A DNA stretch of 64,000 bases, taken from contig OZ245002.1 of assembly GCA_965223415.1 (NCBI GenBank), forward strand, positions 3,392,001 through 3,456,000. Direction: 5' to 3'. This stretch comes from Myxococcota bacterium. GTDB taxonomy: Bacteria > Myxococcota_A > UBA9160 > UBA6930. The notes beneath the pieces were generated by a model. That model had not been told where the DNA came from, searched no databases, and was given only the letters and a program-made list of their open reading frames with translations. Below, piece by piece: positions 2,549-22,683 of the stretch (the first letter of the stretch is position 1; each line of letters begins with the position of its first letter). Both the position numbers and the translations under genes were made by a program.

Positions 2549-3802
2549 ATGGAGACGGGGATCTCGGTCGAGGAGGCGCGCCGCCGGGTGCTCGAGGCGG
2601 CCGTTCCCCTGCCCGCCGAGATCGTGCCGGCGGGGGACGCCCTGGGTCGCGTCCTGGCCGAGAGCGTCCGCTCCGGTCGCACCCTCCCCCCCGCCGACGT
2701 CTCCGCCATGGACGGCTACGCCGTGCGGGCGGAGGACCTGGCCGACGCCTCCCCCAGCGCTCCCCGAGCGCTGGCGGTGGTCTTCGAGGTGGCGGCGGGA
2801 GGCCAGGGCGAGCGGCCGCTCGCGGCCGGGGAGGCGGCGCGGATCTTCACCGGCGCGCCGGTTCCGACCGGCGCCGACACCGTCGTGCGTCAGGAGGACG
2901 CGGAGGCGGTGGGCGGGAGCGTCCGCATCGGCATCGCGCCACCGCCCGGCGACCACGTGCGCTCGGCCGGGGAGGACGTGATGCTGGGCGACGCCGTGCT
3001 CGCGCCCGGTGCGCGCATCGGCCCTGCGGAGGTCGGCATGCTGGCCTCCCTCGGGCGCACCCTCGTGCACGTCCACCGCCGGCCGCGGGTCGCCATCGCC
3101 TCGGGCGGCGACGAGCTGGTGGAGCCCGACGCCGATCCCGCCGGCGGGCGCATCGTCGCGAGCAATGCCTACTCCCTGGCGGCCCAGTGCGCGGAGGCTG
3201 GCGCCCTCGCCGTGAACCTCGGCATCGCCCGGGACACGCCGGAAGACCTGGCACGGGTGTTCCGGGCGGGGCTCGGCGCCGACCTGCTGGTGAGCTCCGC
3301 GGGCGTGTCCGTCGGCGATCATGACCACGTACGGCCGGTGCTCGAGCAGCTCGGCTGTCGGCTGCGCTTCTGGGGCGTCCGCATGAAGCCCGGCTATCCC
3401 CTGGCCTTCGGCCGGATCGGCGATGACGGGCCCTGGGTCTTCGGCCTGCCCGGGAACCCGGTCTCGGCGATGGTTACCTTCGAGCAGTTCGTGCGTCCGG
3501 TGCTGCTGCGTATGGGAGGGCACGAGGCGTGCTTCCGGCCGGTAGTGACGGCGACGCTCTCCGAGCCTCTCTCGAAGAAGGCCGGGCGCCTGCACTTCGT
3601 CCGCGTTCACCTGAAGCGCGACGGCGACCGCATCCTCGCCAGCAGCACCGGCAACCAGAGCTCCGGCGTTCTGCGCTCGATGACCCTGGCCCAGGGACTC
3701 CTGGTCTTCCCCGCCGAGGCCACCGAGCTCGCCGCCGGCGAGGAGGTGCCGGTGCAGGTGCTCGACGAGCGCTTCTTCCGCACGAGGGAGCCGCCGGCTT
3801 GA
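2549..3802 (+). CDS. moeA: Molybdopterin molybdotransferase
   Basis: SAMDGYAV, IFTGAPVP, GDEL, SAGVSVGDHD, KPG and LPGNPVSA motifs. Confidence 0.95.
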   Translation: METGISVEEARRRVLEAAVPLPAEIVPAGDALGRVLAESVRSGRTLPPADVSAMDGYAVRAEDLADASPSAPRALAVVFEVAAGGQGERPLAAGEAARIFTGAPVPTGADTVVRQEDAEAVGGSVRIGIAPPPGDHVRSAGEDVMLGDAVLAPGARIGPAEVGMLASLGRTLVHVHRRPRVAIASGGDELVEPDADPAGGRIVASNAYSLAAQCAEAGALAVNLGIARDTPEDLARVFRAGLGADLLVSSAGVSVGDHDHVRPVLEQLGCRLRFWGVRMKPGYPLAFGRIGDDGPWVFGLPGNPVSAMVTFEQFVRPVLLRMGGHEACFRPVVTATLSEPLSKKAGRLHFVRVHLKRDGDRILASSTGNQSSGVLRSMTLAQGLLVFPAEATELAAGEEVPVQVLDERFFRTREPPA

Positions 3803-10763: not shown

Positions 10764-11243
10764 CTAGCGATGCTCCATCTTCACTTCTTCGGTGGCTTCG
10801 GTCTTCCCGCCAGCCTTGACCCAGGCCTTGAAGACGCGTCCCGCGTCCCGGGCCGGGTTGTAGATGTCCTCCTCGGATGCCCACAGGCCGTTGCCGCCGT
10901 AGACCAGCCGCGTCCAGTTCGGGAACGCGAAGGGCGCGCCGTTCTCCTGGAAGGGCTCCGGGAAGGAATTCTGGCAGCAGAAGACGATCGCGCCGCGCTC
11001 TTCGTCGAGGACCCACCAATCCTGGGGGAAGGTCATCGTCGGGTACGGCGCCATCACGCCCTGGATCCACTTCTCGATGGCGTCGCGTCCCTGGAACTCG
11101 CCGTAGGCGTGCTCGATGTAGTGGGCGTCCTCGGTGAAGACCGCCGCCCAGACGCTCCAGTCGCCGGTGCGGGAGGCGGTGTCGCGCGCCTGCTTGTAGC
11201 GGTCGAAGGCTTCGAGGATCTCTTCGCGGGAGTACTGACCCAT
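10764..11243 (-). CDS. SnoaL-like / NTF2 family protein
   Basis: WAAVFTEDAHYIEHAYGEFQGRDAIEKWI; upstream of and co-oriented with the thiolase. Confidence 0.8.
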   Translation of the reverse strand: MGQYSREEILEAFDRYKQARDTASRTGDWSVWAAVFTEDAHYIEHAYGEFQGRDAIEKWIQGVMAPYPTMTFPQDWWVLDEERGAIVFCCQNSFPEPFQENGAPFAFPNWTRLVYGGNGLWASEEDIYNPARDAGRVFKAWVKAGGKTEATEEVKMEHR

Positions 11244-11302
11244 GACGGACTCCGAGGTTTCGGGACCGCGGAGCGTAGGCCAACCGGGCTAGGCTCCGCA
11301 CC

Positions 11303-12199
11303 ATGGGCGTGCGTGTCGGCGTGGGGATCGGCTCCTTCGGCTTCGAGGAGGCCTCCGGCTGGTTCCGCTTCGTAGAGCGCCTGGAACGCGCGGGCGTCGA
11401 CTCCTTCTGGCAGACCGATCGGCTGGTCTCCCGCGAGCCCTACCTGGAGGCGATGTCGGCGATGGCCGCCCTGGCCGGCGCGACGGAGCGCATCAAGTTC
11501 GGGATGAATGCGGTGGTGATCGGGTTCCGCGATCCCCTGCTGCTGGCGAAGCAGTGCGCGACCATCGACTATCTGTCCGGCGGCCGTCTGCTGCCCGTGT
11601 TCGGGGTGGGTGCCGACGGCGCGCCGGAGTGGCAGGCCACGGGTCGGAGCCCGGCGCGCCGGGGCCGCTGCGCCAACGAGGCCCTCGCCCTGCTCTCGCG
11701 TCTGTGGTCCGAGGAGTCGGTGGACTTCGAGGGCGAGTTCTATCGCTACGAAGGCGCGCGTATCGAGCCGCGCCCGGTCCAGCAGCCGCTTCCCCTGTGG
11801 ATCGGCGGCAGTAGCAAGGCGGCGATCCGCCGCACGGCCCGGCTCGGCACCGGCTGGCTCGCCGGCATCACCGCACCGGGCCTGGTGGGCCCGGTGATCC
11901 GCTCGATCCAGGCGGAGGCCCGGGCCGTCGGCCGCACGATCGCCACGGACCACTTCGGCGCCACGATCCCCTTCCGTTTCGGCGGTGCCGACGACCCCAT
12001 GGCGAAGCGCCTCGCCGCGCGGGCCGGCGACGCCCTCGTGATCGGGACCCCCGCCGACCTGATCGCCCGGGCTCGCGCCTACCAGGAAGCCGGCGCGTCG
12101 AAGTTCGTCATGCTCCCCCTTGCCACCGGCGAGCACGACATCCTCCAGCAGACCGCTCCTCTCCTCGCCGAAGTCATCCCCCCCCTCGAATCCGCCTGA
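11303..12199 (+). CDS. LLM-class flavin-dependent oxidoreductase
   Basis: GVDSFWQTD, DPLLLAKQCATIDYLSGGRL, PRPVQQPLPLWIGG. Confidence 0.88.
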   Translation: MGVRVGVGIGSFGFEEASGWFRFVERLERAGVDSFWQTDRLVSREPYLEAMSAMAALAGATERIKFGMNAVVIGFRDPLLLAKQCATIDYLSGGRLLPVFGVGADGAPEWQATGRSPARRGRCANEALALLSRLWSEESVDFEGEFYRYEGARIEPRPVQQPLPLWIGGSSKAAIRRTARLGTGWLAGITAPGLVGPVIRSIQAEARAVGRTIATDHFGATIPFRFGGADDPMAKRLAARAGDALVIGTPADLIARARAYQEAGASKFVMLPLATGEHDILQQTAPLLAEVIPPLESA

Positions 12200-12213
12200 C
12201 CGACCGGCTGAGA

Positions 12214-12281
12214 GCAAGAGTGGGGACGTTCCTTGCAACTTGCGCAATTGCGCAAGTTGCAAGGAACGTCCCCACTCTTGC
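12214..12281. repeat. 68-bp perfect loopless palindrome, REPIN-like family A (GGGGACGTTCCTT core)
   Basis: 34-bp arm GCAAGAGTGGGGACGTTCCTTGCAACTTGCGCAA followed directly by its exact reverse complement; between convergent genes. Confidence 0.95.
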
Positions 12282-12292
12282 GTTCTTGGGGG

Positions 12293-13018
12293 TCAGGCCT
12301 GGCGCAGGTGGGCGGCCATGCGGGTGCGGACGCGGTTCGCGAGCTCTTCCGGGTCGGTGCCGAGGGCGGTGGCGGGGATCTCCTCGAGGATGTCGACCCG
12401 GATCGGGTGGCGGCCCTGGAGGACGAAGCCACGCTTGGGGAGCGCGTCACCGCTGCCCTGGATGGTCATCACCAGCAGCGGCTTCTGGCAGCGGATGGCC
12501 AGCTCGAAGGCGCCGTTCTTGAATGGGCGGAGCTTGCCGTTCACCGACCGGGTGCCTTCCGGGAACATCATGATCGAGCTGCCCTCGTCGAGGGTCTGCT
12601 CGCAGGCGCGGAACATCTGGAGGACGCTCGAACGCTCCCCGCGGCGGATCTCGACGTAGCGATTGAGGCGCATGTTCCAGCCGATGAACGGCAGCCGGAA
12701 GTTCTCGATCTTCGACACCCACTTGAAGTGGGTGAAGAGGCGGAACAGGACGAGGATGTCCACCAGCGAAAGATGGTTCGAGACCATCACGTAGGTCTCG
12801 CGCGGCCGGATCTTCTCGCGCCCCTCGATCGAGACGTTCCACGCCGGATTGAACCATGTGTAGAGCGACGCCCAGAAGCAGGTGAAGCGGTGCAGCAGGA
12901 CCTTCCGGCGGTCGAACGGGGCGGTGACGGCCCAGACCAACACCGCCACCGGGAAGAGCAGGACCGACGAGATGGTGAGGAAGGCCCAGAAGACGAGGGA
13001 GCCGATGCGACGCGCCAC
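12293..13018 (-). CDS. Lysophospholipid acyltransferase (PlsC family)
   Basis: NHLSLVD (HxxxxD), FPEGTRS and FKNGAF motifs. Confidence 0.92.
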   Translation of the reverse strand: MARRIGSLVFWAFLTISSVLLFPVAVLVWAVTAPFDRRKVLLHRFTCFWASLYTWFNPAWNVSIEGREKIRPRETYVMVSNHLSLVDILVLFRLFTHFKWVSKIENFRLPFIGWNMRLNRYVEIRRGERSSVLQMFRACEQTLDEGSSIMMFPEGTRSVNGKLRPFKNGAFELAIRCQKPLLVMTIQGSGDALPKRGFVLQGRHPIRVDILEEIPATALGTDPEELANRVRTRMAAHLRQA

Positions 13019-13048
13019 GGCCGAGAGATTACCGCGGCCGTCCCCGGG

Positions 13049-14005
13049 CTACTCCAGCTCGAAGGAGCGGGCGTTGTCGCAGGCGATACCCGGATCGGCG
13101 CGAACCGCCTGCGCCCGGGCCCGATCGAGGGCGTCCGTATCCATGCGGGTGGGCAGCTCGTTCAGGTCGGCCAGCAGCGTCAGGCCCTCGGCCCGCGCCG
13201 CCGGATCGTTCTCGGCTTCGCCCAGGCAGACGAGGGCGACGCCGAGCTCGACCCGATAGTCGATCCGGCTCGGCACCACGTCCGCCGCCTGCCGGGCCAG
13301 GCGCACCGCAGCCAGCTTGTCGCCGCGGAAGCCCAGCATGCGCTCGATCCACCAGGTGTCGGGGACCATCCGGTAGTACACCGCCGCGCCGTAGTAGAGG
13401 TTGGCCCGCTCGTGGTTCCACTCGTTGTCGGTCCACACCGAGGGCTCGAGGGCGAGGCACCGCTCGAGCTCGATGCCGGATTCCTTGATCAGCCCGACCG
13501 AGCGCATCGCGCCCTTCACGGTGGCGATCCGGGAGGTGGAGGCGAAGTGGTAGAAGCAGCATTCGACGCAGCCCGGGTCGGCGGCGGCGGCCGCTCCGGC
13601 GCGGGCGCGGGCCTCCTCGAAGATCGCGAGCCGCTGCTCCTTGTCCTCGATCGGCACCGCCTCCCCCACCACCATCAGGTCGCGGGCCAGCCTCCAGGAC
13701 GTGTGGACGTCGCCGGGCTGGAGATCGAGGATGCGCCGCTTGATCTCGGCGGCCCGGCGGCTATCGCCGGTGGCTTCGGCCTCGACGCTGTCGGCCCACA
13801 GGCTCGCCAGGCTCGGATCGCCGAGCAGGTCCGGCGTGCGCAGGGAGGGGGCGATCGCGTCGACCGGCGGCAGGGTCGCCGCCTCGGCCGGAGTGCTGGC
13901 CAGCGCCACTTCCTCGGCGCCGCAGGCGGCCGCCAGGAGCCAGAAGGCGCCGGCCCAGGCCGCGGGCCGGCTTCGACGTAGGAGCAGGAGGAGCATCGAT
14001 CGCAT
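13049..14005 (-). CDS. TPR-like helical lipoprotein (TatT/BstC-like, tentative)
   Basis: Lipobox LAAAC; WRLAR...CVECCFY...YYRMVPD...GDK helical-repeat pattern; start at 14005 or 13996. Confidence 0.55.
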   Translation of the reverse strand: MRSMLLLLLRRSRPAAWAGAFWLLAAACGAEEVALASTPAEAATLPPVDAIAPSLRTPDLLGDPSLASLWADSVEAEATGDSRRAAEIKRRILDLQPGDVHTSWRLARDLMVVGEAVPIEDKEQRLAIFEEARARAGAAAAADPGCVECCFYHFASTSRIATVKGAMRSVGLIKESGIELERCLALEPSVWTDNEWNHERANLYYGAAVYYRMVPDTWWIERMLGFRGDKLAAVRLARQAADVVPSRIDYRVELGVALVCLGEAENDPAARAEGLTLLADLNELPTRMDTDALDRARAQAVRADPGIACDNARSFELE

Positions 14006-14101
14006 GGCTGGATTCCCCGTAGGCGTGGGTGTCCGGCGAGCGTCTGGAGGTGTCAGCATGCCGTGTCCCGCGGGGAATAGCCAGGGAGCGGCGACGAGGC
14101 C

Positions 14102-14128
14102 GTAACCGGCCCCGTGCCCGCCGCGTAG
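14102..14128 (+). promoter_or_regulatory. ECF sigma-type promoter GTAACC-N16-CGTAG
   Basis: GTAACC at 14102-14107, 16-nt spacer, CGTAG at 14124-14128, upstream of the DUF3179 gene; same architecture at 17205-17179. Confidence 0.65.
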
Positions 14129-14149
14129 TCCTGCGCGGAGGCCGGGGAA

Positions 14150-15112
14150 ATGGGCGCATGGGTCCGGGGAAGGGCGGGGCGGCTCCTCGCCGCGGCGTGG
14201 GGCGCGCTGGCGGCCGCTGCGGCCCCGGCCGAGCCGATCCGCAATGGCTTCGACCTCGCGGACGCCGCCGTGCCGGCCGAGGAGATCCTCGCCGGGGGCC
14301 CGGCCCGGGACGACATTCCCGCCCTCGACCACCCCGAGGCCATCGGCTCCGCCGGCGCCGACTGGGACGACGACGTCTTGGTGCTGGGCTTCGCCGAGAA
14401 CGGCGAGGCCCGGGCCTACCCGGTGCCAATCCTCGACTGGCACGAGCTGGTGAACGACACGGTGGGAGGCCGCCCGGTGCTCGTCAGCTGGTGTCCCCTG
14501 TGCGGCACGGGGATGGTCTTCGACCGCCGGGTCGGCGAGGCCGATCGACACTTCGGTGTGTCGGGCCTGCTCTACCGCTCCGACGTCCTGATGTACGACC
14601 GGGAGACCGAGAGCCTGTGGTCCCAGATCTCCTCCCGGGCGATCAGCGGGCCGAGCCGGGGCCGCGAGCTCCGGCTGCTGCGCTCCCGGATGGAGCGCTG
14701 GGGCGCGTGGCGGCTGCGGCATCCCCACACCACGGTGCTCTCCCGGCGTACCGGCCACCAGCGGGCCTACGGCCGCTCACCCTACGCCGGCTACGCCACC
14801 TCGAAACGCCTGCGGTTCCCGACTCCGACCGACGACCGCTACCACCCGAAGATGCCGACCGTGGGGCTGCGCCTGCCCGGCGGCGTCGCCCGCGGCTATC
14901 CGGCGGAAGAGCTGGTCCGGGCCGGTGGATTCGCGGAGGAGGAGCTGGCCGGCCACCGGGTTCGCGTCCGCTACGACGACACCGCCCAGACCTTCGACGT
15001 CGAGGCGCCGGAGGGGGTGGAGGTGATCGAGGGGTTCTGGTTCGCCTGGGCGGCCTTCCACCCGGACGCCAGTGTGTTTCGAGTCCCAGCTTCCGGAGGA
15101 ACGCTCCCATGA
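14150..15112 (+). CDS. DUF3179-family secreted CxxC protein
   Basis: Signal peptide, GGPARDDIPALDHP, ARAYP..IL.WHELVND, WCPLCGTG, FGVSGLLY, MYDRETESLWSQ, FWFAWAAFHP. Confidence 0.88.
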   Translation: MGAWVRGRAGRLLAAAWGALAAAAAPAEPIRNGFDLADAAVPAEEILAGGPARDDIPALDHPEAIGSAGADWDDDVLVLGFAENGEARAYPVPILDWHELVNDTVGGRPVLVSWCPLCGTGMVFDRRVGEADRHFGVSGLLYRSDVLMYDRETESLWSQISSRAISGPSRGRELRLLRSRMERWGAWRLRHPHTTVLSRRTGHQRAYGRSPYAGYATSKRLRFPTPTDDRYHPKMPTVGLRLPGGVARGYPAEELVRAGGFAEEELAGHRVRVRYDDTAQTFDVEAPEGVEVIEGFWFAWAAFHPDASVFRVPASGGTLP

Positions 15113-15837
15113 CGAAGATCGCCAACGTCCTGTCCTGCATCGCGCTCGCCACCCTGCTCGCGGCGCCGGCCGCCGCGGAGAACCCCTGCAACCCGTGCGC
15201 GGCCAATCCATGCGCCGAGAACCCGTGTGCGGCGAACCCCTGCGCGGCCAACCCGTATGCGGCGAACCCCTGCGCGGCCAACCCGTGTGCGGCGAACCCC
15301 TGCGGCGGCAACCCCTGCGCCGCCCCGAACCCGTGCAATCCCTGCGGCGGAAACCCCTGCAATCCCTGCGGTGGCGGAACGACGGACGCCTCGCGCTTCG
15401 TGCAGCCGAAGGGCGCCGCGCTCGCCAGCGCCGACGCGGCGACGCTCAGGGCCGAAGGGGAGACGCTCTGGAACGACAAGTCGCTCTCGAAGAGCGGAGC
15501 GCTCTCGTGCGCGACCTGCCACGTCGGCGGCACCACCCAGATGAACGCCAGCTTCGGTGCGCCCTATCCGCATCGGGTGGCGATGCCCCACCAGGCGGCG
15601 GGCGTGGAGGAGGTGAACGCCGCCGAGATGGTGCAGTTCTGCATGGTCACGCCGATGGCGAACGAGCCGCTGCCCTGGTCTTCCCGCCAGCTGGCGGCCC
15701 TGACGGCCTACGTCGAGAAGCTGCAGGAGGGCTTCGTCGCGCCGGCCGCCGGTACAGGTGCGGGGGTAAACCCCTGCAATCCCTGCGGAGCGAATCCCTG
15801 CGCAGGCGGGAACCCCTGCAACCCGTGCGGCAACTAA
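15109..15837 (+). CDS. Secreted monoheme cytochrome c (SoxA/TsdA-like domain) flanked by Asn-Pro-Cys repeats
   Basis: ATGA overlap with DUF3179; signal peptide; 13 NPC plus 1 NPY N-terminal repeats; CATCH heme motif; EMVQFCMVTPMANEPLPWSSRQLAALTAYV segment; 5 C-terminal NPC repeats. Confidence 0.85.
   Translation: MTKIANVLSCIALATLLAAPAAAENPCNPCAANPCAENPCAANPCAANPYAANPCAANPCAANPCGGNPCAAPNPCNPCGGNPCNPCGGGTTDASRFVQPKGAALASADAATLRAEGETLWNDKSLSKSGALSCATCHVGGTTQMNASFGAPYPHRVAMPHQAAGVEEVNAAEMVQFCMVTPMANEPLPWSSRQLAALTAYVEKLQEGFVAPAAGTGAGVNPCNPCGANPCAGGNPCNPCGN
15181..15369 (+). repeat. Coding tandem repeat array of NPC(xx) units, including three near-identical 30-bp units at 15220-15309
   Basis: Units close to AACCCGTGTGCGGCGAACCCCTGCGCGGCC; the middle copy has TGT>TAT (Cys>Tyr) and the third ends GGCGGC. 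Confidence 0.92.
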
Positions 15838-15958
15838 TCCGTACGAGTGCACGCGCCGGGCGGTCGGCACCCGTCGCCCGGCGCCAACGTTTCGCCCCAT
15901 CCAGGCGAATTCGGGGACCGACAGCGACCCCTCCTGCTGTCGGTCCCCACCCCTGGCC

Positions 15959-17170
15959 TCAGCGCGGCCGACGCAGCTCCGCCAGCACGTAGGACGAGCG
16001 CCGTGTCCGCTCCAGCGCGTCGGCGATCAGCGCCCGGGCTTCCTCGTCCTCGAGCCGCGGCAGGTAGCGCTCGAAGACGCCCCGGTAGTGGAAGTCCGGG
16101 TCGACGGTCACCCGCCCGACCAGGCCCGCCGCCTGGGGCTCGAAGGGGAGCTCGTAGGCGAGGCGCGCCGTTCCACCGGCCGGCACCCGGGTGTCGAAGA
16201 CGTCCTCGCCCTTCCGGAAGTCGACCTTGCGGCCGATGGTGTGCTCGCGACGCGTGTCCCGGATCTCGGCCCCCGCGCCGTCGACCTGCCACACGGCCAT
16301 CACCACGCGCGGCGTCACGTAGGTGGGGAACGCATGGCCGACGCCGTGAGCGGTCACCACCAGCACAGGCGCCTCGCCCGGGGCCCAGGCGACGTCCACG
16401 CCGGCGGCGACCATCTCCCGGTCGTGGATGCCCCGCCAGAGGTGGCGGCGGTCGGGCATGTGGCAGCTCTGGCAGGTCTGGCCGCGGGCCGCATGGGGGC
16501 TCTCCTGCCATTCGAAGAAGGTGTTCTGCACGTTGATGCCCTTGCGATCGAAGAACTGATGGCAGGGGGCGCAGAAGCGCGACTCCTGGAAGTCGGGGCG
16601 AGCCTCGAAGCCGCCGTGGGGCAGCGCTTCGGGAAGCGGCGGCAGCTCCGCGCGGCGCGGCGGGCCGAGACGCTGGTGCGCTCGCACGTGGCAGCCGGCG
16701 CACACCAGGCCCTGGGCGCGCAGGTCCGCCCGATGGTCCGGGCGCGGCTCGTGGTCCGGCCCCGGACCGAAGGGCTGCTGCTCCTCGAGCGGCGTGTGGC
16801 AGCGCTGGCAGCCGCGCAGCGCGTGGGGCCGGGCGTTGGCCCCTTCGATCAGCTGGCCGGCGAAGCCCGGCGAGAAGGCGTCGGCGTGCAGGGACGTCTC
16901 CCAGTCGGCGAGCTGCTGCGGGTGACAGGCGCCGCAGTCCTTCGGGTCCAGGGACGCCTCGAGCGGGCTCCAGCCTTCCGGTGCCGGGCCCTGGGCGGCG
17001 ACCGGGCGCTTCCAGTGGGCCTCCAGGAAGGGTCCCAGGGCCCGCTCGCGCTGGGTCGGGCGCCCGGCCTCCCCGGGGTCGGGGGAAGGCGGGTCCATCG
17101 GGCCCGCCGACTCCTCGCCCTCGCAGGCGGGGAGCAGCAGGACGAGCAGGGCGAGCGCGTGCCACCTCAT
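15959..17170 (-). CDS. Pentaheme c-type cytochrome lipoprotein (c554-like multiheme family)
   Basis: Lipobox LPAC; CGACH, CQRCH, CAGCH, CAPCH and CQSCH; GHAFPT motif in the C-terminal region. Confidence 0.88.
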   Translation of the reverse strand: MRWHALALLVLLLPACEGEESAGPMDPPSPDPGEAGRPTQRERALGPFLEAHWKRPVAAQGPAPEGWSPLEASLDPKDCGACHPQQLADWETSLHADAFSPGFAGQLIEGANARPHALRGCQRCHTPLEEQQPFGPGPDHEPRPDHRADLRAQGLVCAGCHVRAHQRLGPPRRAELPPLPEALPHGGFEARPDFQESRFCAPCHQFFDRKGINVQNTFFEWQESPHAARGQTCQSCHMPDRRHLWRGIHDREMVAAGVDVAWAPGEAPVLVVTAHGVGHAFPTYVTPRVVMAVWQVDGAGAEIRDTRREHTIGRKVDFRKGEDVFDTRVPAGGTARLAYELPFEPQAAGLVGRVTVDPDFHYRGVFERYLPRLEDEEARALIADALERTRRSSYVLAELRRPR

Positions 17171-17178
17171 CGCCGCTC

Positions 17179-17205
17179 CTACGCGAGGCGGCCTGCGGCG
17201 GTTAC
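17179..17205 (-). promoter_or_regulatory. ECF sigma-type promoter GTAACC-N16-CGTAG
   Basis: Minus strand GTAACC (17205-17200, contains the DoxX TAA stop), 16-nt spacer, CGTAG (17183-17179), 8 nt before the multiheme ATG at 17170. Confidence 0.65.
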
Positions 17206-17600
17206 TCCGGGCCTTCCGCGCGGGCGCCGTCCACGCTCCAGAGGCCGGCGCCCTTCGCGGCGATCAACAGGAAGACCCAGCAGTAGGCGATGGAGAGCTC
17301 GCCCTGGTTCAGGATCGGGAAGAACTCGCCGGACTGCCCCCAGTGGGCCATGAAGTAGGCCACGGCCATGGTTCCGCTGGAGAGGAAGGCGGCCGGCCCC
17401 GTGAAGAGGCCGATCGCGACTAGCGCCCCGCACACCAGCTCGATGCCGCCGGCGCCGTAGACGATGAAGGCCGGCGCACCGTCCGGCGGGCCGCCGAAGA
17501 GCCCGAAGACCTTCTGCAGGCCATGCTGGAGGAAGAGCAAGCCGATCAGGATGCGCATCGCGGCGTAGATCTTCTCGGTGTGCGGTCGAAGGAAGTCCAT
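17202..17600 (-). CDS. DoxX family membrane protein
   Basis: [55 protein letters not shown]. Confidence 0.9.
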
Positions 17601-17666
17601 CTCGTCTCCTCGCTGGGGCCCCCGGGGCGGGCTGGGACCATGGCTGCCGCGAGTCTACCCTGGCTC

Positions 17667-17696
17667 GCAACCACGGGCCGGGTCGGGCATCCCAGG
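17667..17696 (+). promoter_or_regulatory. Candidate ECF-type promoter GCAACC-N15-CATC upstream of msrP
   Basis: Shares the 13-mer CGGGCATCCCAGG and the spacing with the site at 28403-28432. Confidence 0.4.
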
Positions 17697-17709
17697 TCCG
17701 AGGAGCGCC

Positions 17710-18678
17710 ATGAGGATCTTCCGTCCCGCCCCGATTCCCTCTTCCGAGATCACCTCGGAGAAGCAGTTCCGCGAGCGCCGCGCCTTCCTGCGCGCGGCTG
17801 CGGGCGGCGCCGCCGGCCTCGCGTTGCCCGGCTGCTTCGACGCCGGCGAGGTGGAGGCGGCACCTCGCCGCGAGCCGACGCCGCTCTCCGGCGTCGCTCC
17901 CGGGCCGAAGGAATTCCAGACCGACGAGCCCCACACGCCCTTCGAGGACGCCTCCTCGTATAACAACTTCTACGAGTTCGGCACCGACAAGTCGGACCCC
18001 AAGCGCTACGCCGGGAGCCTGCGCCCGCGCCCCTGGTCCGTGGCGATCGAGGGGGAGGTCGGCCGGCCCGGGCGCATCGACCTGGACGACCTGCTGCGTC
18101 CCCACACGCCCGAGGAGCGGGTCTACCGGCTGCGCTGCGTCGAGGCCTGGTCGATGGTGATCCCCTGGCTGGGGATTCCCCTGGGCGAGATCCTGAAGCG
18201 CTTCGAGCCCACGTCGAAGGCGAAGTACGTGGCCTTCGAGACCCTGGTCGATCCCGAGCAGATGCCGGGCCAGAAGCGTCTGGTGCTCGAATGGCCGTAC
18301 CGGGAGGGCCTGCGCATCGACGAGGCCATGCAGCCGCTCACCATCCTCGCCGTCGGCATGTACGGCAAGGAGCTCCCGAACCAGAACGGGGCTCCGCTGC
18401 GGCTGGTGGTGCCGTGGAAGTACGGCTTCAAGAGCATCAAGTCCATCGTCACGATCCGACTCACCGAGACCCAGCCCGTGACGACCTGGAGCCAGGAGAA
18501 CCGGCGCGAGTACGGCTTCTTCGCCAACGTGAACCCCGAGGTCTCCCACCCGCGCTGGAGCCAGGCGCGGGAGCGGCGCATCGGCGAGTGGAAGAAGCGG
18601 CCGACCCTCATGCTCAACGGCTACGCCGACCAGGTCGCCTCGCTCTACCGGGGCATGGATCCGAAGAAGCTCTACTGA
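17710..18678 (+). CDS. msrP: Protein-methionine-sulfoxide reductase catalytic subunit (Mo, Tat-exported)
   Basis: SEIT..RRAFL Tat signal, [50 protein letters not shown]. Confidence 0.96.
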
Positions 18679-19271
18679 GGAGAAGCGCCCTGCTGCACCG
18701 GGCCGTCGTCGGCCTCCTACTCCTCCCCCTCGTCGTCGTGACGGTCGGCGCACTCACGGACCGGCTCGGGGCGAACCCGGTGGAGCAGCTCACCCACGCA
18801 ACCGGTGAATGGGCGCTGCGCTGTCTGCTCCTCTGCCTCGCGGTGACGCCGGCGCGCCGCCTCTTCGGGTGGACGCGCCTGGCGCCCTACCGGCGGAGCC
18901 TCGGGCTGCTCGCCTTCACCTACGCCGTGTGCCACTTGGCCGTGTTCCTCGTGTTCGACCTCGGCCTCGACCCGGGCTTCCTGCTCGAGGAGATCGCCGA
19001 ACGTCCCTACGTCACGATCGGGTTCGCGTCGTTCCTGTGCATGACGCCGCTCGCCATCACCTCGACCCGCCGCTGGCAGCAGCGGCTGGGGCGTCGGTGG
19101 ATCGCGCTCCATCGCCTGGCCTACGCGGCCGGGGTGTTGGGCGTCCTGCACTTCCTGTGGCTGGCGAAGGCCGATCTCGTGGCACCGGGGGTCCACGCGG
19201 CCCTCCTGGCGCTCCTGCTGACGCTGCGTCGCTGGAAGTGGCCCGAGAACGCCGCGAAAACGGGGATCTGA
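18675..19271 (+). CDS. msrQ: Heme-binding membrane subunit of MsrPQ; start probably CTG (18675 or 18690)
   Basis: [44 protein letters not shown]...W..LHRLAY; directly after msrP. Confidence 0.9.
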
Positions 19272-19336
19272 GCCGCCCCGGGAGCCCTCCGCGCGCGATG
19301 CCGTTATGATGTGGCCCGTTCATCCGAGGGGGAACC

Positions 19337-20437
19337 GTGGGTCGACATCCGCTCATCGAGCGCGCCAATGACAAGCTGGTGCGTCAGGCCAAGGGCTTCC
19401 AGGAGGCCGCCGCCCAGCTGACCGGCGACATCCTGTTGGCGGAGTACGAACGCGAGCGGGACGCCGCGCCGAGTCGCGCCGAGGCCGGCAAGAAGTACCT
19501 AGTCGCGTACAACAGTCGGCTCGCATCCGAGCCGAAGGCGGGACGCGAGGGCGAGCACCTCTGCATCGCGCTGGCGCGGCGTCACAAGGACGGCGGGCCG
19601 CCGCTCCTCATGGCGGACGAGGAGGGGCACTTCGAGGCCCTGCATCCCCTCGTTCCAATGCGCAGTGCCCCGGCCGACAAGGCGGCGGGCGCGGACGACC
19701 CGAACTTCGGCCTGGACAAGATCGATCTCGTCGGTCGCGGTCCCGAGGATCGCCTGGTCGCCCTCTCGACCCGTTGGCTTCCGCCCGACGCCGGGCGCGT
19801 CGGCACCGGCGATACGCCGCTGCGTGCGCTGCTCCTCGCCCTCGCCCACGCTGCCGTCGCGGAGGCGAACGCCTCCGCCCTGACCGAGGAGCTCGGTGCC
19901 ACCACCGAGGGTCCCTTCGCCGAAGGCCACCCGATCGTGCTGCTCGCCGGCAGCCCCCGCTACTGGGAGCTGTGCCGCAAGCGCGCCGCCCAGCGCGGGG
20001 CCGCCTGGATCCGCGAGATGGAGCGGCTCGCGAAGGAGCTCGGCGAGCTCGGCCTGCGGGTCGAATACGTCTCCTTCAAGATGAAGGAGACCCCGCCCTG
20101 GGCCTATGACGACGGCTCCCCCGTCCTCCAGTGCGAGCCGCGCATGGTCGAGGCCTGGGAAGCGAGCGCCGGCCGGCTCAAGCCGAAGCCGAAGCCCCGG
20201 CCCAAGCGGGCGACGGCCCAGCCCGAGAATGAGGTGGTCGAGGCGGATCTCAGCCGGCCCATTCGCAGCTACAGCCTGAGCGAGCACTACGACCCGGGAG
20301 ATCGCATCCAGCATCCGACCCTCGGTCTCGGCGTGGTGCAGGGTGCGGCCGGCCCCCAGAAGATCCGCGTGCTCTTCGACGAGGAGCGCCGCAGCACCCT
20401 CGTCCACGATCGGCCGGCCCCCGCTGCCAGCGTTTGA
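19337..20437 (+). CDS. Hypothetical protein: degenerate PD-(D/E)XK-like region plus C-terminal Tudor/PcrA-CTD-like domain
   Basis: Coding-like 366-aa ORF; KIDLVG..DRLVAL and GDTPLRALL segments; C-terminal YDPGDRIQHPTLGLGVV...KIRVLF. Confidence 0.6.
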   Translation: MGRHPLIERANDKLVRQAKGFQEAAAQLTGDILLAEYERERDAAPSRAEAGKKYLVAYNSRLASEPKAGREGEHLCIALARRHKDGGPPLLMADEEGHFEALHPLVPMRSAPADKAAGADDPNFGLDKIDLVGRGPEDRLVALSTRWLPPDAGRVGTGDTPLRALLLALAHAAVAEANASALTEELGATTEGPFAEGHPIVLLAGSPRYWELCRKRAAQRGAAWIREMERLAKELGELGLRVEYVSFKMKETPPWAYDDGSPVLQCEPRMVEAWEASAGRLKPKPKPRPKRATAQPENEVVEADLSRPIRSYSLSEHYDPGDRIQHPTLGLGVVQGAAGPQKIRVLFDEERRSTLVHDRPAPAASV

Positions 20438-20444
20438 GGCCCTC

Positions 20445-21926
20445 GTGACGCGCTTCTTCCCGCGGACGGTCCTGCTCCTCGCGGCGGCGATGCTCCTCGC
20501 CTGCGCCACGAACCCGGTGACCGGCGAGCGCCAGGTGATCTTCATGTCGCCGGAGCGCGAGGCGGCCCTGGGCCGGCAGGAGGCGGCGAAGGTCGCCGAG
20601 CAGATCGGGCTGGTGGAGACGCCGGCCCTCTCCGCCTACGTCGCCGATCTCGGCGCGAGGCTGGCCAAGCACTCGCCGCGCACCGACGTCCAGTACCACT
20701 TCGCCGTGGCGGACATGGAGGCGCCGAACGCCTTCGCGCTCCCCGGCGGCTGGATCTACGTCAGTCGCGGCCTGCTCGCGATCTGCAACAGCGAGGACGA
20801 GCTCGCCGGCGTGATCGGCCACGAGATCGGCCACGTCGCGGCCCGCCACTCCGCCAGCCGGGAGAGCCGCTCCATCGGCGTCGGGCTGCTCACCCTGCTC
20901 GGCGTGCTCGCGGCCGGCGCCGCCGGCGGTGAGGGCGCCGCCCAGACCGTGGCCCAGCTCGGGCAGGTCGCCGGCGCCGGCTTGATCGCGACCTACGGCC
21001 GCGACCAGGAGCGCCAGGCGGATCGCGTCGGCCAGGAGCTGGCGGCCCGGGCCGGCTACGACCCGGCCGCCATCTCGAGCTTCCTCGGGACCCTGGGCCG
21101 GGAATCGGCCCTGCGTGCCGGCGGCAAGCACCGCCAGCCGAGCTTCTTCGACTCCCATCCCATGACCGACGAGCGCGTGCGCAACACCGAGGCCTTCGCT
21201 GCCAGCCTGGGCCGCGCGAACGTGCCGCCCATCGCACCGGACCGCCCGGCGTTCCTGGCCAGGCTCGCCGGCCTGCCGGTCGGCCCCGACCCCGCCCAGG
21301 GCGTGTTCCGCGACGAGCTCTTCCTGCATCCGGGCTTCGGCTTCGCGCTGCGCTTCCCCGAAGGCTGGCGCACCCAGAACGGCCGGAGCGCCGTGGTCGG
21401 CGTCTCTCCCGAGCAGGACCGAGCCGTCACCCTCGAGGGCGGGCCCGTCACCGAGGCCCCGGCCGACGCCGCCCGTGCCTTCGCCCGGGAGCAGGGCCTG
21501 ACCCTCGAGGACGGACGCCGACTCCAGATCGGCGGCCTCCCCGCCTACCGAGCCCTGGCGCGGGTCCAGGCCCGCGGTGGCTCCCGCATCGTCCTCCTCA
21601 CCTGGATTGCCCACCGCAAGGCCACCTTCCGCATCACCGGCATCGCCGGCGGCCAGGCCACGAACGCAACGCTCCGCGAGCTCGCCGCCGTCGGCGCAAG
21701 CTTCCGCCCCCTCACCCGCAAGGAACGCAGCAGCATCCACGAGCTCCGCCTCCGCGTCGTCAAGGCCCGTCGCGGCGAGACCCTGCGCACCCTCGGCCGC
21801 CGCACGAAGAACGCCTGGAGCGTGGCGGAGACCGCCGTCGCCAACGGCCTCCCGGAGGGCGGGAAGCTTCCGGCGGGGCGGCGGGTGAAGGTGACGCGGG
21901 CGGTTCCCTTCTCGGCTTCGCGGTAG
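20445..21926 (+). CDS. M48-family zinc metalloprotease lipoprotein with LysM-like C-terminus
   Basis: LLAC-ATNPVTG lipobox, PNAFALPGG, HEIGH, E.QAD and SHP motifs; GTG start at 20445. Confidence 0.9.
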   Translation: MTRFFPRTVLLLAAAMLLACATNPVTGERQVIFMSPEREAALGRQEAAKVAEQIGLVETPALSAYVADLGARLAKHSPRTDVQYHFAVADMEAPNAFALPGGWIYVSRGLLAICNSEDELAGVIGHEIGHVAARHSASRESRSIGVGLLTLLGVLAAGAAGGEGAAQTVAQLGQVAGAGLIATYGRDQERQADRVGQELAARAGYDPAAISSFLGTLGRESALRAGGKHRQPSFFDSHPMTDERVRNTEAFAASLGRANVPPIAPDRPAFLARLAGLPVGPDPAQGVFRDELFLHPGFGFALRFPEGWRTQNGRSAVVGVSPEQDRAVTLEGGPVTEAPADAARAFAREQGLTLEDGRRLQIGGLPAYRALARVQARGGSRIVLLTWIAHRKATFRITGIAGGQATNATLRELAAVGASFRPLTRKERSSIHELRLRVVKARRGETLRTLGRRTKNAWSVAETAVANGLPEGGKLPAGRRVKVTRAVPFSASR

Positions 21927-22683
21927 GGGTTTCGCCGATCGCGTCGGGTTGGTGGTGCCGGCTTGGGTTGGGCTGGGACTGGGGCGGCCGTGGAGGTGCG
22001 GGCTGCCTTCTTGTCTGTGGGCGAGGAGGGGGCGCACCGGTTCGGGCGCGGGGCTTGGCCCCGCCCCGCTTCGAGACCGGATCGGCTTGGGGATCGGCCC
22101 CGCGTGCGGGCCCGCACCGGGCAGCCGGGCCGATCCTGGTCGAATGGTTGTTAGGTGTCGCCACGTAGAGAGAAGATCGCTGGATCATCTTCATGGCGCG
22201 ACGCCGATCCCCTTCGCAGATGGAGATCCACTTCCCCTCCTGGGGTGGGAAGCGCGACGGGGCGGGAAGGAAGCCGAACGGACAACGCAGGTGCGGAATG
22301 CCATCCGCTACGTGCTCCTGAACGCGCGGCGGCACCTGCGGCAAACGACCGGGGCCGTGCGGCTGGATCCGGCCTCCTCCGCCCGGTGGTTCGACGGCTG
22401 GAAGCGAGGGGCCTCCGAGCTGATCCGCGAGGCCCGGACCCGCCCGGGCGGCCCCCTCCTGGATCCGGCCGCCACCCCAGGTCGAGCCTGACCGAGCCTC
22501 CGATCCCCGAGCCGACCCCGCTTTCGAAGCAGGGCGGGCCCAAGCCCCGGGCCCGGCCCGGCGCGCCGTCCCCCAAGCCCACAGGCCAGGAGCAGCACCT
22601 CCACGGCCGCCTCCAGTCCAAAGCCGAGCCCAGGCCTCGCGTCGCCGATCAAACGCGATCATTCGTCTTGCGGAAACTGCTAC
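21923..22683. mobile_element. Non-autonomous element: RAYT-like transposase remnant inside long imperfect inverted repeats
   Basis: Arms about 21923-22097 and 22500-22683 are reverse complements (e.g. exact 17-mer 21983-21999 vs 22595-22611); ends read GTAG...CTAC; transposase fragments lie between them. Confidence 0.65.
22193..22491 (+). pseudogene. Internally deleted, frameshifted Y1/HUH (RAYT-like) transposase
   Basis: ATG 22193 gives MARRRSPSQMEIHFPSWGGKRDGAGRKPNG, joined out of frame near 22285 to TQVRNAIRYVLLNARRH...DPASSARWFDGW. These match my recollection of the N- and C-termini of myxobacterial RAYT-type transposases; no HUH motif between them. Confidence 0.7.

Follow-up and report, generated by a model that had tools for sequence, protein, structure and literature searches.

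A DUF3179 protein, a cysteine-tailed monohaem cytochrome and a pentahaem lipoprotein recur together across bacteria and may form a haem-fed thiol/disulfide relay

Six redox-type genes lie side by side on contig OZ245002.1 of a Myxococcota bacterium (assembly GCA_965223415.1), and the most unusual of them encodes a c-type cytochrome with 18 Asn-Pro-Cys (NPC) repeats. The window, the whole stretch of 64,000 nucleotides that was analysed (contig positions 3,392,001 to 3,456,000), has a G+C content of about 72%. Counted from its first letter, the six genes form three transcription units across 14150-19271:

14150-15112, plus strand, first gene of unit 1: DUF3179 protein, 320 amino acids, hydrophobic N-terminus, PF11376, CxxC
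15109-15837, plus strand, second gene of unit 1: NPC cytochrome, 242 amino acids, PF21342, one CxxCH, 18 NPC
15838-15958, no strand: convergent intergenic spacer of 121 bp with two long G+C-rich hairpins and no T runs
15959-17170, minus strand, second gene of unit 2: pentahaem c-type cytochrome lipoprotein, 403 amino acids, five CxxCH, MccSep/c552 family
17202-17600, minus strand, first gene of unit 2: DoxX-family membrane protein, 132 amino acids (Pfam DoxX, E 2e-13, 51.2 bits against a cut-off of 23.6)
17710-18678, plus strand, first gene of unit 3: MsrP, molybdopterin catalytic subunit, periplasmic methionine-sulfoxide reductase (NF003767, E 3.9e-139, 463 bits against 207)
18675-19271, plus strand, second gene of unit 3: MsrQ, haem-binding membrane subunit (NF003831, E 1.5e-51, 175 bits against 130)

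Units 1 and 2 are convergent, and unit 3 is divergent from doxX. The original prediction had listed these six contiguous genes, and every family that it assigned holds by Pfam and NCBIfam, with DoxX, MsrP and MsrQ all above their cut-offs; its label of exported or membrane-bound for the six proteins comes from N-termini judged by eye. The coupling that it saw between the first two genes is present, the TGA of the DUF3179 gene overlapping the ATG of the cytochrome gene in an ATGA at 15109-15112. The spacer between units 1 and 2 folds with a minimum free energy of -71.5 kcal/mol (z -6.75), and none of 200 shuffled sequences folds equally well. Its hairpins are probably the ends of both transcription units; a scan for T-run terminators gave no site within 15838-15958.

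The NPC cytochrome is built from a haem domain between two tails:

residues 1-23: signal-like N-terminus
15181-15369, plus strand: N-terminal tail, 13 NPC
15370-15756, plus strand: haem domain
15508-15522, plus strand: haem motif C134xxCH138
15640-15642, plus strand: invariant C178
15757-15834, plus strand: C-terminal tail, 5 NPC

The 18 repeats reported earlier were thus found again, 13 ahead of and 5 behind the single CxxCH (C134-H138). The core of about 125 residues is a SoxA/TsdA-type domain, with residues 116-208 matching PF21342 (SoxA/TsdA cytochrome c) at 35.5 bits against a cut-off of 27, and the DNA that encodes the N-terminal tail is a 15-nucleotide tandem repeat of 8.7 copies. From 5949 candidates, a word-based homologue search retained 1007 proteins at E up to 0.001. 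Each of the 120 homologues among the matches listed carries 7-37 NPC around a single CxxCH, so the repeats are not a product of chance; with one CxxCH in each of these 120, neither a second haem domain nor a SoxX partner was found. Longer fused forms of the core were not found either, which is weak evidence.

By family profile, the closest solved relative of the core is the N-terminal haem domain of Rhodovulum SoxA (1h31_A, E 0.0026). The alignment places C178 on SoxA C114, which we regard as the cysteine that ligates haem 1, and M174 and M183 on M110 and M119. Because the 80 loci compared below had been picked with the pattern EMV[QN]FCM, the cysteine was rechecked independently by scoring a core-only profile, without that motif, against 1.84 billion representatives. 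The profile gave 562 clusters (50% identity) at E up to 0.001, with 244 at E up to 1e-10, and among the best 150 of the 562 proteins, 150 of the 152 aligned domains retain the cysteine. Among these 150 core relatives, some of which are fragments, 65 have at least three NPC, 66 have no NPC and 45 have four cysteines or fewer. The alternative tails consist of other CxxC repeats, are His-rich or acidic (Glu-rich), or are missing altogether. Relatives P0213, P0247, P0192, P0201, P0233 and P0261 illustrate the range, with KCGAC, CGPC/CDPC, RHHRRHH with GEAEAK, or EAEAE tails. As NPCNPC reads as C-N-P-C, most tail types amount to runs of CxxC.

The DUF3179 protein matches PF11376 with an E of 3.5e-77 (260 bits, cut-off 27). 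It has just two cysteines, both in the motif C115-P-L-C118 (14492-14503), and these, together with H98, E99, N102 and D103, are invariant across 23 DUF3179 sequences. The AlphaFold2 model (pLDDT 88.7) gave no whole-fold match in the PDB at E up to 0.001 and only DUF3179 clusters in Atlas, and no solved relative was found by profile at E up to 1; a stretch of some 80 residues is similar to a Rieske ferredoxin (5bok, prob 0.96). A CcdA, redoxin/thioredoxin or DsbA-type fusion occurs in 26 of 66 long DUF3179 forms. The fused domains in these 66 are thioredoxin-fold redoxin (22), CarboxypepD_reg-type (21), CcdA-type membrane (9), DsbA-type (3) and FGE (1), and architectures were checked for six of the 66. 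The order CcdA-Redoxin-DUF3179 is the layout of a terminal acceptor in a periplasmic reducing relay. In the tables seen of PMC9312934 and PMC13188914, DUF3179 stands as a UxxC/T selenoprotein family. The original prediction had cast DUF3179 as a thiol recycler, a role that gains support from the CcdA and thioredoxin-fold fusions and from the selenocysteine (Sec) forms. We found no published function for the domain, which appears in tables only. Among the natural fusions, P0134 joins DUF3179 to an FGE-sulfatase domain, P0159 and P0169 are CcdA-Redoxin-DUF3179 fusions, and P0121 has an AhpC/TSA domain ahead of two DUF3179 stretches.

The gene convergent to the cytochrome gene encodes a five-haem lipoprotein as predicted: the product of 17170-15959 has five CxxCH and an N-terminal LLLPAC, and a cysteine at the lipobox position is present in most of its relatives. 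The motifs lie at residues 79, 121, 157, 200 and 233 and are all invariant in the alignment, as are the non-motif His 95, 185, 243, 249 and 279; the window protein has no cysteine beyond the haem motifs and the lipobox. The best Foldseek match of its AlphaFold2 model (pLDDT 79.5) is 5ze8, the penta-haem c552 of T. tepidum (E 1.5e-12, TM 0.51/0.53), and its profile matches are MccSep (9wt8, E 3.2e-13) and again 5ze8 (E 1.1e-12). MccSep is a polysulfide reductase with an active-site haem ligated by C239, plus U325, according to the excerpted text of bioRxiv 10.1101/2025.11.18.688581; the c552 has no assigned role in the excerpts of PMC11976967, where a part in sulfur metabolism is suggested. When the definition of the MccSep site is taken from that preprint excerpt, the aligned positions of the pentahaem protein are not cysteine, and its score against the NCBIfam ExtKL equivalog is 34.7 bits, with the cut-off at 250. 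His249 may replace the ligand that was lost with MccSep C239, judging from the alignment.

The window proteins were compared by tblastn with the 80 loci of cytochrome relatives, with phmmer used in addition for DoxX, MsrP and MsrQ. The pentahaem protein was found at 25 of the 80 loci and DUF3179 at 23, whereas DoxX, MsrP and MsrQ stand beside the cytochrome at only one, locus L003 of a close relative. The conserved unit therefore consists of DUF3179, the cytochrome and the pentahaem protein, and the expectation that the six genes would co-occur elsewhere is borne out for these three and fails for the other three. Among the remaining window proteins, the luciferase-like enzyme occurs at six loci, a 366-residue protein of no family at four, the PlsC-type acyltransferase and the TPR-like lipoprotein at two each and the M48 peptidase at none.

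The arrangement of the three conserved genes is not fixed. Where the flanks are long enough to tell, the pentahaem gene follows the cytochrome gene immediately, in convergent orientation, in 16 of 71 loci, and the DUF3179 gene precedes the cytochrome gene immediately on the same strand in 9 of 68. On the tree of the core domain the window falls in a clade of 20 loci, which are Myxococcota or 'Deltaproteobacteria' metagenome-assembled genomes plus a few other labels; among the 17 assessable loci of this clade, 15 have the pentahaem gene and 11 have DUF3179. Both genes are also found in betaproteobacterial loci, in other positions and orientations, and across the tree the presence of DUF3179 changes 13 times and that of the pentahaem gene 14 times. 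Of the 32 loci whose flanks reach 7 kb or more in both directions, 29 have at least one of DUF3179, pentahaem and DUF6969. L003 has long flanks and holds the pentahaem, DoxX, MsrPQ and 366-residue genes, with DUF3179 absent. The tie between the Cys-rich cytochrome, DUF3179 and a multihaem protein, which the original prediction had drawn from one locus, is thus seen in two deep clades with differing gene orders. That the linkage survives rearrangement in both clades is our main argument that the three proteins work together, and on this evidence from gene order they probably form one functional unit. No probability was put on the linkage, since the sample is a biased one in which related rows do not count as independent.

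To describe the neighbourhoods without prior labels, 4199 open reading frames (ORFs) within 7 kb of the cytochrome gene were clustered and the cluster representatives were scanned with Pfam and NCBIfam. The commonest neighbour is DUF6969 (46/80 loci), which in Proteobacteria usually lies immediately downstream of the cytochrome gene (L068, 8805-9521, for example) and of which we found no mention in the literature. It is followed by a YeeE/YedE-type 'sulphur transport' protein (25), DUF302 (23), an extracytoplasmic function (ECF) sigma factor with a zf-HC2 or DUF3379 anti-sigma factor (20), a secreted protein of no family (18), an FGE-sulfatase-domain protein often directly beside the cytochrome gene (17), a small secreted protein made of NPC repeats only (16), a C92 peptidase (11), CcdA with an adjoining thioredoxin (6) and a flavoprotein disulfide reductase, cluster 34 (6). 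The thioredoxin and CcdA pair adjoins the cytochrome gene in six loci that lack DUF3179, and a TIGR01244-type sulfur transferase family occurs in six loci. The hosts of the family include Myxococcota, iron-oxidising Gallionellaceae, methylotrophs and marine Gammaproteobacteria. DUF6969, the YeeE/YedE-type transporter and DUF302 occur in no locus of the window clade. In the window itself, DUF6969, the YeeE/YedE-type transporter, DUF302, FGE, ECF sigma, C92 peptidase, MerA and CcdA were all missing, both by tblastn at 1e-4 and by Pfam among the 33 other window ORFs; the ECF sigma factor is thus absent beside the six genes here, yet present in 20 of the 80 related loci.

Two of these neighbour groups deserve separate description. 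The secreted NPC(AAK)-repeat proteins (cluster 14) consist of a signal peptide and repeats only, and their genes usually lie beside the cytochrome gene (L020, L024, L026, L028, L031, L032, L039, L044, L045, L048, L059, L066, L067, L072, L075 and L077); the one at L072 (4034-4396) is in addition His- and Met-rich. Of three disulfide reductases tested, two are true MerA and one is a glutathione reductase. The genuine mercury(II) reductases adjoin the pentahaem/NPC set at L059 (2480-5299) and L047 (2701-4215), with MerR in L059; merT and merP were not noticed in the cluster maps around them, and the YeeE/YedE-type transporter belongs to the gene set at these MerA-bearing loci.

What can the three proteins do together? 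The composition and conservation of the set, its residue patterns and its homologies are matters of observation, and we read them, with somewhat less than even confidence, as a haem-fed thiol/disulfide relay that acts on S-S or S-metal bonds carried by the tails. The lipid-anchored pentahaem protein would serve as a wire at the membrane surface and bring low-potential electrons to the cysteine-ligated haem of the NPC cytochrome. That haem and the CxxC of DUF3179 would then cycle the tail cysteines between thiol and S-S, a step for which the sequences leave the chances evenly balanced. The reduced tails would capture thiophilic species, and the S-S or S-metal bond so formed would be cleaved. 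The favoured species would be sulfane sulfur or polysulfide, with a soft metal nearly as likely; taken by itself, a sulfur substrate is possible rather than probable on the residues and homologies at hand. Put differently, the chemistry of MccSep, with its Cys-ligated haem, Sec/Cys and haem chain, would be spread over three proteins. Sulfur is favoured because both cytochromes trace back to sulfur enzymes and because the parts of the MccSep site are present among the three proteins, and the sulfur theme in the related loci (the YeeE/YedE-type transporter in 25/80, the TIGR01244-type family in 6) counts in the same direction. A soft metal comes so close because the tail types are diverse and MerA, MerR and TerB neighbours occur. 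In its most specific form the proposal is a periplasmic cytochrome-polythiol machine, in which the CxxC tails are the working arm, either as a sulfane-sulfur carrier or as a redox-switched metal sponge, driven by the haem, fed by the pentahaem protein and reset by DUF3179, and which in Proteobacteria sits within a larger ECF-controlled set with DUF6969, the YeeE/YedE-type transporter and DUF302; in that full form we think it rather unlikely.

Several results weigh against the relay. The cytochrome finds a weak match in the PDB (E 0.0026), with the haem-1 domain of SoxA and not its catalytic domain, and a match of the family to TsdA was not found at E up to 1. The thiosulfate-binding residues of TsdA, named as R109, R119 and S127 in the part seen of PMC4423706, correspond by spacing from C178 to A164, M174 and P182. 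Tails that are His-rich, acidic or absent suit metal binding or a plain carrier better than sulfur carriage, and the only possible electron donor for the pentahaem protein in the window is DoxX. The 80 loci, picked by a motif, are a biased sample; 55 of them lack the pentahaem gene and 57 lack DUF3179. Within the window clade, DUF3179 is absent from 6 of the 17 assessable loci, L003 included, and the pentahaem gene from L008 and L009, although 9-10 kb of flank is available there. The ligation of the haem, the chemistry of the tails and contacts among the three proteins are all things that we infer.

The best surviving alternative, which we regard as doubtful though close in standing to a sulfur substrate, is a metal sponge with a haem. 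Here the tails would bind soft or borderline periplasmic metal ions (Cu, Hg, Cd, Zn or Fe), the low-potential, pentahaem-fed haem would keep the thiols reduced or reduce the metal, and DUF3179 would keep cysteines reduced or pass the metal on. The CNPC, KCGAC, CGPC, RHHRRHH and Glu-rich tails are all types of metal-binding low-complexity tails, and the Sec forms of DUF3179 are tabulated alongside Sec metal-binding proteins in the table seen of PMC9312934. The neighbourhoods add the His/Met-rich NPC protein of L072, the MerA genes of L047 and L059 with the MerR of L059, further TerB, DUF533 and MerR-type neighbours, and the ECF sigma/anti-sigma pairs of 20 loci. However, MerA-type neighbours are few, cluster 34 being limited to 6 of 80 loci with only two of the three tested members true MerA, and both cytochromes are homologous to sulfur enzymes rather than metal enzymes. 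No metal-resistance gene was found in the window by Pfam among its 33 other ORFs, and no sulfur-oxidation gene either. Moreover, periplasmic metal sites are usually made of Met and His rather than of thiols, free thiols being oxidised in that compartment.

That there is no dedicated module at all, with the cytochrome a plain soluble carrier, its tails tolerated repeats and its neighbours inherited gene order, is improbable. It would agree with tails that vary freely or are absent (66/150 without NPC, 45/150 with four cysteines or fewer), with copy numbers from 7 to 37 in what is a DNA tandem repeat, and with the 40 of 80 loci that have neither DUF3179 nor the pentahaem gene. Against it stand partners that recur in distant clades in new arrangements, with 13 and 14 changes on the tree, and the ATGA translational coupling, and 29 of 32 well-flanked loci hold DUF3179, the pentahaem gene or DUF6969. 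The near-invariant cysteine at the ligand position is likewise atypical of plain class I carriers.

More improbable still is the view of the original prediction, a six-gene stress module with DoxX and MsrQ drawing quinol electrons. The six genes are indeed contiguous in the window, and five of them, without DUF3179, are so in L003; doxX lies 31 bp upstream of the pentahaem gene on the same strand, and doxX and msrP are divergent across 109 bp. Beyond the single locus for DoxX, MsrP and MsrQ, however, no DoxX was found past the convergent pentahaem gene in 13 other loci (Pfam, 87 ORFs), where the genes vary and include a cellulase, a Na/H antiporter, a glutaredoxin, a luciferase-like enzyme and DsbH/DsbD_N. 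Nor was the DoxX family found by Pfam in the 73 representatives of neighbour clusters seen in at least three loci. The promoter motif that had been said to be common to two units did not stand: between the region upstream of DUF3179 (14040-14150) and the doxX/msrP intergenic region (17595-17715) the best common word is an 8-mer, a level that shuffled sequences reach 164 times in 200. A repeat search of 17590-17720 found nothing, no sigma-70-like site was found in 13900-19500, and Rfam (E up to 0.1) gave no match across 11000-22000. DoxX and MsrPQ as parts of the system were therefore not borne out.

The gene for the 366-residue protein indicates how these genes may have come to lie here. Encoded at 19337-20437 on the plus strand, the protein has no Pfam or NCBIfam family and belongs in Atlas to a Myxococcota hypothetical family. 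Its gene comes after msrQ in the window and in L003, and lies directly upstream of the pentahaem gene on the same strand in L023 (12016-13131), L058 (11945-13054) and L046 (2025-2120). As it holds the doxX position in those three loci, which also speaks against the six-gene module, doxX-msrPQ looks like an insertion, in one lineage, between the 366-residue gene and the pentahaem gene. MsrPQ is an ordinary methionine-sulfoxide repair pair that stands alone; the MsrP N-terminus is twin-arginine-like. No ATG, GTG or TTG is found at the expected start of msrQ (18675-18740). A CTG overlaps the msrP stop there (CTGA), where L003 has GTGA; a start at the following in-frame GTG (18738) would truncate the first membrane helix. 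Probably, then, msrQ uses a rare CTG start. DoxX may partner the pentahaem protein in the membrane at this locus, though it is not a conserved partner. It scores 32.6 bits against the HvfX/bufferin-type DoxX model (NF050144), below the cut-off of 80, and no DUF692- or DUF2282-type family was found among the window ORFs scanned.

The least probable alternative is that the tails are modified after translation, for example by FGE-type enzymes with DUF3179 as part of the maturation, for although FGE-sulfatase-domain genes occur in 17 of 80 loci and often adjoin the cytochrome gene, one natural DUF3179-FGE fusion exists (P0134) and NPCNPC contains C-x-P, the FGE motif C-x-P-x-R is unmatched in the tails, where position +4 is Ala or Gly, and the fusion is a single one among 66 long DUF3179 forms. 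For the window, FGE modification was rejected, as there is no FGE homologue in it.

The remainder of the window is unrelated housekeeping, with moeA at 2549-3802. Divergent from the DUF3179 gene lies the gene of a 339-residue lipoprotein-like protein (13049-14068, minus strand), which has LAAAC near its N-terminus and no family; it is kept beside DUF3179 and the PlsC-type acyltransferase in L001 and L002 only.

These results bear on a sizeable uncharacterised family whose members almost all keep the cysteine of the ligand position and differ extremely in their tails, most of which are rich in CxxC. Cysteine-ligated haems are rare and, where understood, as in SoxAX, TsdA and MccSep, carry out sulfur-sulfur bond chemistry. 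The conserved partner DUF3179 is a widespread domain capable of being a selenoprotein, with no known function and no solved relative, and the three-gene definition makes both it and the NPC cytochrome directly testable. The reading of the neighbourhood is also corrected, in that MsrPQ and DoxX are to be kept out of the system. If the relay is real, it would be a new route by which respiratory electrons reach thiol, sulfur or metal chemistry in the periplasm. Our searches found no published account of NPC-repeat cytochromes or of this gene combination; the parts come from known superfamilies, and what appears undescribed is their combination and the family of tailed, cysteine-ligated monohaem proteins.

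How does the set compare with systems that are understood? With SoxA/TsdA (PF21342; SoxA 1h31) the NPC cytochrome shares one c-type haem domain of the family fold and a conserved cysteine about 40 residues past the CxxCH, which aligns, flanking Met included, with SoxA C114. That family joins or cleaves S-S bonds by means of a haem with a cysteine ligand, as stated in the excerpts of PMC4423706. In contrast, the NPC cytochrome is monohaem and lacks both a SoxX partner and a second haem domain; it matches the N-terminal and not the catalytic domain of SoxA, has no Arg at the TsdA thiosulfate-binding positions by spacing, and alone carries CxxC-rich tails.

The pentahaem protein resembles MccSep (ExtKL, GSU2937-2936) and c552 (5ze8) in having five CxxCH in equal order, a TM of about 0.5 and a C-terminal beta domain, and its His 95, 243 and 279 are matched in MccSep. 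It differs in that C239 and U325 are absent, with Asn/Thr-type residues in the first region and a Tyr near the second; in an extra invariant His249, which falls on an Arg in MccSep and on a His in c552; and in being a lipoprotein.

Relays that run from CcdA/DsbD through a thioredoxin-like protein to a terminal periplasmic reductase exist, fused MsrAB proteins being an example. DUF3179 is like them in its terminal place in the CcdA-Redoxin-DUF3179 fusions and in its invariant CxxC with Sec variants, and unlike them in that the window protein is free-standing beside cytochromes, with no CcdA or thioredoxin nearby, and in a fold without a solved relative.

The window MsrP and MsrQ, above the NCBI equivalog cut-offs and encoded by adjacent genes, are like E. 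coli YedYZ with the probable CTG start of msrQ as the sole oddity, and MsrPQ is not linked to the cytochrome set outside the lineage of the window. Set beside the DoxDA thiosulfate:quinone oxidoreductase, the window DoxX has only 132 residues.

For the tails, the nearest parallels are other flexible Cys-bearing peptides: the GGCGG arm of SoxY (SoxYZ with SoxAX), Sud, and the bufferins, which occur with DoxX and an ECF sigma factor. The SoxY arm is likewise a flexible Cys-bearing peptide next to a haem enzyme, and bufferins are periplasmic Cys-rich peptides under ECF control. The likeness is one of analogy, with no sequence relation claimed: unlike the SoxY arm, the arm of the NPC cytochrome belongs to the cytochrome polypeptide, with as many as 37 repeats among the homologues listed.

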